Part shown: in pieces, positions 9,001-15,000 of the stretch
Layout: every line of letters begins with the position of its first letter
Numbering within the stretch: the first letter of the stretch is position 1
IMG/VR virus record: IMGVR_UViG_2874933748_000005
Origin: a virus
Taxonomy: Duplodnaviria; Heunggongvirae; Uroviricota; Caudoviricetes
Length of the DNA stretch: 48,295 nucleotides
Direction: 5' to 3' (one strand)
Program-made: the position numbers

Positions 9001-12000
9001 ATTGGCTGCTTTTACTGCCTTTGGCGTTGCCGCCAGCGTTTCAGACGTGCTGTTGGTCGCGCTGCTTAGCTGGATTATCCCTTTCTGTGCTGTCGTTGCA
9101 TCCTGTGCGGTGTATTTCCCGTTAGCCAGGTCATACGCGGCCTTAACGGCTTTTGGTGTTGCCGCCAGTGACTCGGAAGTGCTGTTAGTCGCACTACTGA
9201 GCTGTACTATCCCCTTTTTCGTCGTGCTCGCATCCTCAAGCGCCACGGCGGATGCAATATCCTCTGCCCGTTTTGCCGCTGTCTCAGCGCGCGTTGCTGC
9301 AGATTCCGCCGTACTTTTGCTCTGAGCTGCTGCCGTCGCACTACCAGCAGCCTCTGTCGCCTTCGTGGATGCCGTCGTGGCGCTGCCCTTCGCTGCTGAC
9401 GCCTGTCTGGTCGCCTCATCTTTTGAAGCAGACGCCGATGATGCCGATGACGCCGCCGAACTGGCGGACGATGCGGCAGCCGTTTTTGAGGATTCTGCAC
9501 GGGTTTCCGACGCTTTCGCGTTCGTTTCGGATGTCTTCGCTGCGGAAGCTGACCTCGCTGCTGCCGTGGCCTGCTCAGTGGCTTCGCCAGCCTTCGTTGT
9601 GGCTGTTGAAGCGGATGATGCGGCGCTTTCTGCCGATTTTCCGGCGGCGGTGGCACTGGCTGAGGCCTGCCCGGCACTTGTTGACGCGGCGCTGGCAGAC
9701 GACGCAGCCGCTGTTTTTGAGCCTGCCGCAGCTGAGGCACTCTGTCCCGCTGCCGTTTCAGAAGACCTGGCGTTCGTCTCGGACGTTTTGGCCGCCTTCG
9801 CAGAATTTGCAGCCGCCGTCGCCGAGGAAGCTGCGCTACTGGCGCTTGATGATGCGTTCGTTTCTGATGATTTTGCCGCCTCTTTTGAAGCCGACGCATC
9901 CCGGGCTGAGGTGGCAGCTTCTGACGCTTTCGTGGTCGCGGTGGATGCAGAAGTGGCTGCTGATTGTTGTGACGCTGCCGCATTCGTTTCTAACGTTTTC
10001 GCCGCACCGGCACTGGTAGCCGCCGCGCTTTTTGAGGACTCTGCAGCGGCAGCACTTTTTGAGGCTTCAGTGGCCTTTGTTGATGCCGTTCCTGCGCTGG
10101 AAGACGCTGACTGAGCCGACGAAGCGGCCTGTCCGGCTGACGTGCTGGCTGCACGTGCTGAATCTGCAGCATCAGTCGCATGGGTTGCCGCCTCACGGGC
10201 TGATGTGCTGGCATCGCTGGCTGATTTCTTCGCGGCTGCCGTGTTCTGTGCCACCGCGGACGCGTTACGCGCCACCTCTTCCACCATCAGCTCAAAACGG
10301 CGCAGTGCCTCCGGACGGGCATCATCCTCCGTCATGGCACCGAGAAAATCATTCAGCGTACCGGGTCGGGAATCTTCATACACGGTGATGGTCCCGGCAT
10401 GTGACGGCGGGAATCCTTCCACCAACAGAATAACGCTGTACTGACCGTACTCAACGTCCATGCTGTAACGCCCGGCTTCATCCGGATTTTCTGAGGCCAG
10501 CGTGTTCACCACCACCGTGGTGCTGTTACGTTTTGCTTTCAGCTGGATTGTGCAGTTCTGTACCGGTTTTCCTGTGCCGTCTTTCAGTACACCTGAAATC
10601 TTTACTGCCATATTCACCCCACAAAAAAGCCCGCCTGAACCGGCGGGCTGTCATAACACTGTGTTACCTGGCTAATCAGAATTTATAACCGACACCCACG
10701 ATGAAACCGTCAGTGCGCCAGAGACGTGTTGCTGTGGCGACCGTCATCACTTCCGGTCAGCACATCGTGCGTTTTCCCCTTATTGTCAGTTACGCGGATA
10801 TAATCCCCGGAAAAAGTCGACACACGGCTGTAAGCCACACCCGCCATCGCATACGCGCTGAACCATTCATTCACGCGCACAGACGGCCCCGCCATCACGC
10901 TGAACCAGCGGTTACGCACGGAATCTTCATGCCAGCGGGTATCGCTGTAACGGGTCAGCTGGCGATTCTTGTCTCCTGCATAGCTGAATGACGTCACCAG
11001 CCCCAGCGTATCCGTAAACTCATAACGGTATTTCACGTTAATCCCGTTCAGATCATCACTGCCGGGAACGTTGGTCCGGGCATGAAGATACCCCGCGCTC
11101 AGCGTGGACTGATGTTCAGACGCCCATGCAGGCGCACCGGATACGGCCAGGCAAATGGCTGCGGACAAAATGGCTGCACAAACTTTACGCATAATTACCT
11201 CTCGCTTTTCTGCAATAAAAAAGGCGTCATTCCTGACGCCATTTATTGGGGTTATAAATATTTCAACGAATACTGATGCCGGAAGCCGCTTTTTTGGTCA
11301 CAATCACCGTACAGTCGGTGATATTGCCTGCCCCCTGATTGCCTTTCTGGAAAATCTTAAACTCCAGAGTGACGCTACCACCACCACTAGGCATATCAAT
11401 AACTGCACTGTAACTACCGGGAATGGCACCTTTAGTTTCTCTGGATGCGATTAATACGCCGTTTTTGCGAACTTCAAAACCATAACCCGTGTATCGCGTG
11501 CCTCCTGGGTTATTTCCGCTCCCCGGATCGTCATACGCTATACCGTTAAAAATAATGGGCGGAATAATAATCTGGCGGTCAAAGTTATGATCATCGCTTA
11601 TGGTGACTGTAACCGTCCCGTTTGGTGTTTCCGTGTTACCCCACGTACCAGCCTGTTTCGGAAATGATTTGGATACAGCTTTAACGAAGTCACCTCTGAC
11701 CTGAGTCGCCTCCAGCATGCCCTTAATCGTACAGTTTTCATTTACCGTGACATTGTTGAGCGTCCCGGCGTTCGCATTCACACTGCCACTGATATCCGCA
11801 TTTTTAGCGGTCAGCTTTCCGTCCGGAGTCAGGGAAAATGCCGATGGATTTCCACCGCTGGTAATGGTGGGGGCCGTCAGGCGTTTCAGGAACACGTCGT
11901 TCATGAATATCTGATCGCCCTGACCAACAAACATCGGTTTTGTGTTGCCATTCGCAGGATTAACCATCGCAATCCTGTCCGCCGCCAGCAGCACCTGACT

Positions 12001-15000
12001 CTGCATGCCGTCAGGGGTGTTCTCAATACCGGCACCAATACCCGCGATATAAAGGCGTCCGTCCTGCATCTGCTGCAGCTTCACAGCCCACATGCTGTTC
12101 AGGTTATTATTTGTATCAACCTGAACCTTCTGTATCTGCTGAATTGCCGCACTCTGGTCTTCCAGTTTCTTATTGACGGTCTGCGTGATTTCATTGCTGA
12201 CATCCGTAATGGACGTCCTGATTTCAGCCAGGTCAGGCGCAAGCTGACCGTTATCAATCTGCGTCCACAGCTCCTGAGCCAGATGGGTTTTCCCTATCTC
12301 GCCTTTGAAAAAATCCAGATAACCGGATGCATCATCACTCGGCTGACCAACAGCCTCCACGAATGCCGATTTGCCAACGGTGTTCACACTGCGGATATAA
12401 AAGTAATAATCATGGCCCGGTTTGATATTGATACTGGCGGCTATCCAGTACAGCGCCGTGCCAAGATAGCGTGCTGTGGTTTCAACCTGCCTGATATCCG
12501 CAATCCGCTTTTCCGAGAACCAGAACTCAAACTGTACCGTCGGATCATAAACCGCAAGATGCGGCGTGGCGGTTATCTGAAAATAGCCCGGCGTCAGCTC
12601 AATCCGCGACAGCGCTGCCGGTGCGGCAATCCGGAACGATACCGACGCCGGATCGCCCTGCTGCCCCCACGCATTTACTGCCCGGACTGTCAGCCTGTAG
12701 TTCCCCAGCGCCAGTTGTGTGAAGCGGTAAGTGGTTTCCGTCGTCCGGGCCGTGCTGACCAGCCGCTCACTGCCGTCATCCGCTGTTACGGTCAGACGGA
12801 GCAGGAAGCTCACGCCCTTCACCACCTTCGGCGTGTCCCAGCGCGCCAGCACCTGATATTCCCCGCTGTCTGCGGTGACTTCGGCAGTCAGGTGCTGCAC
12901 CGCTGGCGGCGTGACACCATTCACCGTGCCGCTCTGGTCGCCGTCAAAGTGCGCCCCGTTATCCACGATGGCTTCTTTTTCCGGCACATGCTGCACGGCG
13001 GTGATGGCATACGTGCCGTCGTCGTTCTCACGGATACTCACGCAGCGGAACAATCGCTGGTGCAGCGTCGGCAGCTTCAGCCCCCACACGCTGTATTCAG
13101 CAACACCGTCAGGAACACGGCTCACTTTTACCTTCACGCCGTCGGTGACGGACTGGACCTCCACGCTGACCGGATTCCCCTGCCCGTCAACCAGGCTTAT
13201 CAGCGTGGTGCCGGAGGATGGCAGCGTGATTTCACGGTCGAGCGTCAGCGTCCGGGTCTGGCTGTTCACCGCCAGCACGCGCCCGCCGGTGCGGATACCG
13301 GCATAGTCATCATCGCAGATTTCAATGACATCGCCCGGTACATGACGAAGCCCTTCAGCACCCACGCTGAAATCCACGGTCTGCGTCTCCAGCAGTTCCG
13401 TTTTAATCAGCCACAGCCCGGCGCGGTGTGCCTGCCCCCGGCTGGTACAGCCAAAGGCATCCATCTTCGTGACGTTACGACCGTAACGGACAATGGCCTG
13501 CGTATCCTCCACAAGCTCTGTCGCCGTCTCCCAGCCGTTATCCGGGTCAATCCAGTTCACCTCAACGGCATTATGGCGGTCTTTCAGGGCGCTGAAACTG
13601 TAGCGGAACGGCGCGCCATCATCCGGCATCACCACATTACTGCGGTTATAGGCCCACACCTTATCCGACTGTCGGTCCTGCACGAACGTCAGCGTCTGCC
13701 CGTTCCATACCGGCATACAGCGCATCGCCGAGCAGAAATCACTGAGCACATCCCACGCCTTGCGCTGTGTGGTCAGCCAGGCATTACAGGTGATGCGCGG
13801 CTCCGTGCTGCCAAAGCCGTCCGGCACCGACTGGTCACAGTACTGGCCGATGACATACAGCGCCCATTTATCCACATCTGCCGCACCAAGACGTTTCCCC
13901 ATGCCATAGCGCGGATGGGTCAGCATATCCCACAGACACCAGGCCATGTTGTTGCTGTATGCCGGTTTTAACGTTCCGTCCCAGATACCGCTGTATTGCC
14001 GCGTCTGCGGATTATAGTTCGACGGCACCTGCAGAATGCGCCCGCGAAGATGATAATTACGGCTCACCTGCTGGCTGCCGAACTGCTCCGAATCCACCTG
14101 TACGCCGACCAGTGCCGTGTTCGGGTAGCACTGTTTCACATCGATGATTTCGGTGTATGACGACCAGAGCGTTTTGTTCTGCAGCTGGTCTGTGGTGCTG
14201 TCCGGCGTCATTCTGCGCATCCGGATATTAAACGGGCGCGGCGGCAGGTTATCCACCACCACCGAGGCCAGATACTGCGAGGTGGTTTTGCCCTTAATGG
14301 TGATGTCTTTTTCCGTCACCCAGCCACCGTTACGCTGTATCTGAACCAGCAGGCGAACTTCAGACGGATTCCTGTCTCCCTTTGAGGTGGTTTCCACCAG
14401 TGCCTGTACACCGAAGGTAAAACGCAGTCGGTCAATGTTTGCCGACGTGATGGTCCGGGTGATCGGCGTGTCATATTTCACTTCCGTACCCAGCACCGTC
14501 TCGGAGCCGGAGGATTCAAATCCCTCCGGCGGTGACTGCTCCTGCTCACCTGCCCGGAACACCACCGTGACGCCGGAGATGTTGGTATTCCCCTCACTGT
14601 CCAGCACCGGCGTACTGTTCAGCAGCACGCTTTTTAATCCATCCACCGGACCTTCAACCGGCCCTTCGCTGATGGCATCGATCACACTCAGCAGCTGCGT
14701 GGACTTCAGGTTGTCCTTCGCTTCGCGCGGGGTATGCCCCTTACTGCTGCCTTTACCCATTCGTCATGCTCCATAAACGATAAAACCGCCCGGAGGCGAT
14801 TTCACATAAAACATTTTGCATCAGCGACCAATCACCACAACCTGACCACCGTCCCCTTCGTCTGCCGTGCTGATCTCCTGAGATACCACACGTGACCCCA
14901 CGCGCATTTCACCATACAGAACAGGCATAACATTGCCCTGGGCAACCATGTTATCCAGTGAGGAGAAATAGGTGTTCTGCTTACCGTTATCCGTTGTCTG

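Follow-up and report, generated by a model that had tools for sequence, protein, structure and literature searches.

A prophage of Shigella sonnei type encodes a lambda-type tip attachment protein J with a phage 434-type receptor-binding domain and a longer shaft allele

The tip attachment protein J of phage lambda (NP_040600; structures 8iyk, 8xck and 8xcj) binds LamB, and lambda gpJ has been solved both alone (8xck) and on LamB (8xcj). A lambda phage whose J is replaced by that of phage 434 uses OmpC, the 434 receptor, instead of LamB (PMC3509688, PMC11101478, PMC12502783), and 434 J (OL657226, UMO75286.1; h434 allele, OM418627) serves as the standard example of a lambda-type J that uses OmpC. 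The two proteins are 98-99% identical to residue 932, 85% identical over residues 933-987 and 38% identical over residues 988-1132; because their differences are essentially confined to the last ~145 residues, the last ~145-200 residues must set the receptor. A 2025 study also took the 434 central fibre as OmpC-targeting and reported 35-40% identity between receptor-binding domains of differing specificity, and phi330, an OmpC-using siphophage of enterohaemorrhagic Escherichia coli, carries yet another receptor-binding allele (PMC12502783). Docking of a J-type protein on OmpC is documented by the engineered gpJ chimera A8, solved closed and alone (9wca) and open on OmpC of E. coli EDL933 (9wcb). 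Here we analysed the J gene in a 48,295-nt stretch of viral DNA, IMG/VR record IMGVR_UViG_2874933748_000005 (hereafter the window), for which an earlier sequence-only reading had proposed a switched receptor specificity on a lambda-like tail. Our comparisons point to an intact lambda-family J with a lambda-like body and a distal fibre recombined from two circulating alleles, most probably using OmpC as its receptor (a reading to which we assign a probability of roughly 0.8). Residue numbers from here on are those of window J unless stated otherwise.

Window J is a single intact open reading frame (ORF), and its N-terminal start matches that of lambda J. Profile comparisons place the protein in the lambda-type tip attachment protein family: the NCBIfam model NF049904 (lambda_TipJ) scored 2314 bits with a cut-off of 1950, aligning residues 1-1165 with profile positions 1-1163 and hence the full length. 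The Pfam domains FNIII-A_GpJ (86-207), Phage-tail_3 (330-498), Ig_J (610-714), Ig_J_second (718-818), Phage_Tail_Tip (872-1000) and Ig_GpJ_C (1029-1164, 89 bits) were all found above their cut-offs. They follow the order typical of lambda_TipJ proteins, namely hub, FNIII/Ig domains, tail-tip fibre and C-terminal Ig-like receptor-binding domain. The gene also lies at the position expected for such a protein, with H-M-L-K-I upstream and lom followed by stf/tfa downstream (genes were called and assigned to Pfam families in loci that match the window exactly or almost exactly). At the place equivalent to a hairpin 3' of window J (Table 1), a terminator is annotated in the phage 434 record.

Compared by BLASTP with lambda J (NC_001416 15505..18903), window J was collinear and 82% identical overall, with a 28-residue gap in the lambda protein; architecture and gene context are shared as well. 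The divergence from lambda is far beyond chance and covers ~360 residues, arranged as two swapped modules flanking a conserved island (Table 1; domain names for the shaft, prism and receptor-binding regions were taken from PMC11101478). At the DNA level, identity to lambda dropped from 95% to 52% at gene position ~2400 (window ~12360), was back at 95% at gene positions 2851-3000 (window ~11761-11910) and then remained at 48-60% to the gene end. The sequence-only reading had described a lambda-collinear body followed by a divergent C-terminus. This layout is real, but the break lies at residue ~806 (window ~12345) and not at ~850, with 97% identity maintained to residue 805. The ~300 divergent residues that it counted fell short of the actual extent, and its starting point at window position 12100 corresponds to residue ~887. 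It was right that the difference includes the extreme C-terminus (37% identity over residues 1016-1165), but the divergence is not uniform, with residues 961-1015 conserved at 87%. Both the identity of the C-terminus as the classical h434 allele and the second swapped module, a shaft with 28 additional residues, had escaped it.

The evidence for OmpC comes from the receptor-binding domain, which is of the phage 434 (h434) type. Over residues 1016-1165, window J aligned without gaps to 434 J at 95% amino acid identity and reached 97-98% identity to the J proteins of Kati, mEp460_ev081 and WGPS6. Likewise, the last 458 nt of the gene share 95% of their bases with phage 434 (OL657226) and lambda h434 imm21 (OM418627), and 96-97% with mEp460_ev081 and several Stx2 phages; for the DNA encoding the last 150 residues, identity to 434 and lambda h434 imm21 was 95-99%. 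In contrast, identity to the LamB-binding allele of lambda (lambda residues ~985-1132, including the LamB-contacting loops) was 37% with 11 gapped positions, and identity to the OmpC-binding allele of A8 (9wca/9wcb) was 42% over 149 aligned residues. Alignment with lambda J and other lambdoid J proteins, the check suggested with the sequence-only reading, thus found a C-terminal domain that is not conserved with lambda and resembles 434. The 95% identity to the domain of an OmpC-using phage supports the proposed change of receptor on a lambda-like tail, and a switch from LamB to OmpC is the reading best supported by these alignments.

Structure prediction, suggested as a further check, agreed with this assignment. 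An AlphaFold2 (AF2) monomer model of the last 370 residues of J (mean predicted local distance difference test score, pLDDT, of 50) contained a predicted all-beta receptor-binding domain at residues ~1025-1156, with block-mean pLDDT values of 58-94, mostly at least 72, the low spots of 58 and 64 being confined to two ten-residue blocks. Foldseek matched the model best to 9wca, 8xck, 8xcj and 9wcb (E-values of 1e-24 to 8e-15), and the same solved J structures gave the best PDB sequence matches (E-values of 9e-105 and 3e-96). The model is therefore consistent with the Ig-like beta-sandwich fold of J receptor-binding domains. An unrelated C-terminal domain was also considered and was rejected on the Ig_GpJ_C score of 89 bits and the matches to PDB entries 8xcj/8xck (E~1e-96); because homology to the lambda receptor-binding domain is clear, the J C-terminus is a diverged allele and not an unrelated domain. 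A8 gpJ, the best match in sequence and fold among the solved structures, differs in being an engineered chimera on a lambda shaft and in having shorter loops at two positions, and the sequence comparison marks the window domain as an allele in its own right with a shared fold.

The second swapped module comprises the shaft and the upper fibre prism. Over residues 806-960, window J is 32-65% identical to lambda and 434 and 95-100% identical to Kati and Stx2a_WGPS6, and this allele spans the gap between the Pfam domains Ig_J_second and Phage_Tail_Tip, reaching inside the latter. 434 J agrees with window J in family and domain order and is 98% identical over residues 1-805, but it has a short, lambda-type shaft without the 28-residue insertion (1137 aa in total) and only 35-65% identity over residues 806-960; the diverged shaft of lambda is likewise 28 residues shorter. 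The combination of the long shaft with a 434-type domain is already present in Kati, ev099, PhiR34_1, cdtI, Ayreon and the O157 Shiga toxin (Stx) phages Stx2a_WGPS6 and 2851. Among these, WGPS6 J has an N-terminal body that is far more divergent from window J (75% identity), and Kati-type J differs by scattered substitutions (overall DNA identity of ~96%). In the AF2 monomer, the 28-residue insertion falls into predicted helices at residues 829-836 and 841-890, modelled at low confidence, and its helical nature is weakly supported.

The modularity of the distal fibre was assessed in an alignment of 20 homologues and by a motif-spacing count over the 120 best matches, a sample picked by similarity to the C-terminus of window J and made up mostly of 434-type domains. 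The spacing between two conserved motifs defined shaft-length classes of 59 residues (lambda and 434), 65 (a minor class), 87 (window J) and 160 (very long). The receptor-binding alleles among the homologues were of the 434 type, of an A8-like type that forms a separate group (P0113, P0117) and of a third type, with at least one chimera formed within the domain. In this sample, 434-type domains were seen with shafts of all classes, and at least three receptor-binding alleles with the 87-residue shaft. The occurrence of shaft and receptor-binding alleles in several combinations is what one would expect of homologous recombination at conserved junctions, and residues 961-1015, which are nearly invariant across the 20 homologues and lie between the two swapped modules, are a likely recombination junction. 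In the homologue P0119, the first ~100 residues of the receptor-binding domain belong to one allele and the last ~45 are 434-type, implying that recombination also takes place inside this domain. The shafts of P0119 and of P0072, P0081 and P0092 are 73 residues longer than that of window J and 101 longer than that of lambda (160 versus 87 and 59).

Shaft length is therefore polymorphic and recombines independently of the receptor-binding domain, and this is the only part of the locus with some open biology; our literature search found no discussion of the functional meaning of shaft-length polymorphism. The lambda shaft is known to flip and partly refold, thereby transmitting the receptor signal (PMC11101478). 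We tentatively suggest that the shaft, more than the receptor-binding domain, is an under-studied module and that the 28-residue extension, which is four heptads long, might tune fibre reach or the ejection trigger, although we consider this rather doubtful. If true, the longer shaft would act as an independent host-range determinant, either by reach through O-antigen or capsule or through the force or threshold of ejection.

The mosaic structure of J, the near-identity of its terminal domain to that of 434, its family membership and its gene context were observed directly at this locus. In the reading that we favour, the distal fibre would have been assembled by homologous recombination from alleles circulating among the lambdoid phages of E. 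coli and Shigella. The trimeric 434-type Ig-like domain would then reach with its distal loops into the outward-facing opening of a trimeric porin, OmpC rather than LamB, and docking would set off the events described for lambda, with a twist of the prism, a flip of the shaft and an opening of the tail tip that allows DNA ejection. By analogy with the lambda J-LamB and A8 gpJ-OmpC structures, OmpC is most probably both the docking site and the trigger of ejection.

Several observations weigh against this reading. Seven substitutions separate the receptor-binding domain from that of 434 (S1032, Q1036, A1037, N1047, I1136, Q1138 and G1143), and some of them lie near predicted loops, where they could alter the recognition of OmpC variants. 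A8 and a second gpJ chimera, 1A2, do not accept the same OmpC variants (PMC11338833), and in phage 21 one to a few J mutations add the use of OmpC or OmpF (PMC11336670). Given these substitutions, the mutability of porin use and the discrimination by the chimeras, the accepted OmpC variants cannot be read from sequence. The same findings would fit a J whose specificity has been retuned by the seven substitutions towards another porin, such as OmpF, or towards particular OmpC variants, such as those of Shigella. We regard this as improbable, because the domain is still 95% identical to that of 434 and 97-98% identical to those of Kati, mEp460_ev081 and PhiR34_1, which were isolated on E. coli K-12 or are E. 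coli-borne, and because S1032, Q1036 and A1037 recur in many homologues with the same domain type in the 20-homologue alignment. A literature search aimed at phages with exactly this J found no receptor assays for mEp332 or the PhiR/ECOR13 phages. A further reservation concerns the model, in which shaft and prism have low confidence because obligate trimers were predicted as a monomer.

The prophage is also damaged close to J, with a frameshift in lom and IS1 beside tfa, and J may never be used. It could accordingly be an inert remnant of a defective prophage, still intact since S. sonnei is a young clone, with a C-terminal allele that currently has no function. The 83-nt frameshifting deletion in lom and the IS1 transposase ORF adjoining the tail-fibre genes agree with this view, and the identical J in very many Shigella assemblies fits clonal inheritance and not selection. 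We consider it somewhat unlikely, as the reading frames of J, I, K, L, M, H, stf and tfa are all intact; moreover, defectiveness would leave the identity of the allele and its binding when expressed unchanged. Retention of lambda-like LamB binding by the C-terminus, with divergence through neutral drift, is barely credible: fold and family are shared with the lambda receptor-binding domain, but 37% identity to lambda with 11 gapped positions stands against 95% to the OmpC-using 434, and the sharp identity breakpoints are typical of allele replacement rather than gradual drift. Recombination of two circulating alleles in a J that uses OmpC thus remains our preferred reading.

Table 1. Positions of J, its segments and other features in the window, with amino acid identities of the J segments to the J proteins of lambda, 434, Kati and Stx2a_WGPS6.
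Feature	Position	Strand	Remarks
J (tip attachment / host specificity protein)	11263..14760	-	1165 aa plus stop; single intact ORF
J residues 1-805	12346..14760	-	Hub and two FNIII/Ig domains; lambda/434-like; lambda 97%, 434 98%, Kati 98%, Stx2a_WGPS6 75%
J residues 806-960	11881..12345	-	Alternative allele: alpha-helical shaft (AHS) and upper central straight fibre (prism); 806-835: lambda 57%, 434 57%, Kati 100%, Stx2a_WGPS6 100%; 864-900: lambda 32%, 434 35%, Kati 100%, Stx2a_WGPS6 100%; 901-960: lambda 65%, 434 65%, Kati 97%, Stx2a_WGPS6 95%
J residues 836-863	12172..12255	-	28-residue insertion relative to lambda/434, inside the shaft; 27-28 gapped alignment positions; absent from lambda and 434; Kati 96%, Stx2a_WGPS6 96%
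J residues 961-1015	11716..11880	-	Conserved island: lower fibre prism; lambda 87%, 434 87%, Kati 89%, Stx2a_WGPS6 89%
J residues 1016-1165	11266..11715	-	Receptor-binding domain, phage 434 (h434) type; lambda 37% (11 gaps), 434 95%, Kati 97%, Stx2a_WGPS6 98%
Terminator-like hairpin and T-run	11215..11240	-	Sequence scan; follows the J stop codon
lom, truncated	10674..11192 (ORF 10710..11192)	-	160 codons versus 199 aa in 434 and Kati
stf (side tail fibre)	6947..10611	-	Intact; 1027 aa from ATG at 10611; start in the ORF list is a GTG two codons earlier
Rfam IS009 match	6987..7185	-	218 bits against a gathering score of 117; located within the coding sequence of tfa
IS1 transposase ORF	5445..5948	-	Pfam DDE_Tnp_IS1, 260 bits; ~1 kb beyond tfa, in a low-GC stretch
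MlaA lipoprotein gene	518..1273	-	
Formate/nitrite-transporter-family gene	1567..2499	+	
tRNA-Arg(CCT)	2575..2649	+	Left prophage junction (518..3968)
Tyrosine integrase	2775..3968	+	Directly after tRNA-Arg(CCT)
General porin	36493..37635	+	380 aa; Pfam Porin_1, 510 bits; strand opposite to the late genes
LacY-family sugar/proton symporter	43873..45120	+	415 aa; Pfam LacY_symp, 643 bits; near the right end of the window

The J protein of the window is widespread. The exact 1165-aa sequence is annotated as host specificity protein J of Shigella sonnei, or as a MULTISPECIES entry of Shigella, on at least 1000 contigs, and it is listed in 4293 index blocks of the protein collection. Over the 9.5 kb surrounding J, the window matches CP104423.1 at every base and HE616528.1 with 3 mismatches; it is therefore a prophage from a chromosome of Shigella sonnei type. 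Of 5426 complete E. coli genomes, 1168 contain the C-terminal 1.1 kb of the gene (at least 80% coverage), and a protein search with the last 370 residues returned at least 8000 matches, the top ones annotated as host specificity protein J, phage tail tip protein or DUF1983. The C-terminus of J is thus the classical h434 host-range allele in an annotated and extremely common protein and is already known, as are its likely receptor and its distribution, a textbook case of the modular swapping of host-range determinants among lambdoid phages with little discovery value. For annotation, the result means that the tail tip should be read as 434-type, and probably OmpC-specific, rather than LamB-specific, a distinction that bears on predictions of superinfection, transduction and the targeting of phage vectors in Shigella sonnei and E. 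coli.

Downstream of J, lom has lost 83 nt between two copies of CTGGCG relative to the lom genes of Kati, 434 and lambda, which shifts the reading frame and leads to a premature stop; the codons of the original C-terminus (...DGFIVGVGYKF and stop) persist out of frame, and the 160-aa product is also called in Shigella assemblies. The stf product contains phage_tail_N, Phage_fiber_2 and Collar domains, and the assembly gene tfa is intact (193 aa, Caudo_TAP). Unlike laboratory lambda PaPa, the window prophage could therefore make side fibres. The match to the Rfam family IS009 within tfa probably reflects a family modelled on this conserved piece of prophage and not a separate RNA gene. With a porin-regulating phage small RNA of the IpeX type in mind, we scanned the window with Rfam, which returned only the tRNA-Arg and IS009. 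The G+C content at positions 6001-7000 is 36%, and the IS1 transposase ORF beyond tfa suggests disruption or rearrangement mediated by an insertion sequence between int and tfa. On the left side, the integrase gene directly follows tRNA-Arg(CCT), and the prophage is therefore inserted at this tRNA-Arg gene.

Phage PA-2 uses OmpC as its receptor, and its lysogens make the porin Lc and lower OmpC. The window also carries a general porin gene, which is 89% identical at the DNA level to lc of this lambdoid phage (J02580). The porin gene is found in 36 phage records, where it is annotated as OmpD, NmpC or OmpC; many of these records carry a 434-type J, and many others are laboratory recombinants. 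A porin gene that accompanies an OmpC-type J would be in line with superinfection exclusion at the level of the receptor. Further to the right, the LacY-family gene probably belongs to the chromosomal flank, which would place the right boundary of the prophage before ~43.8 kb.

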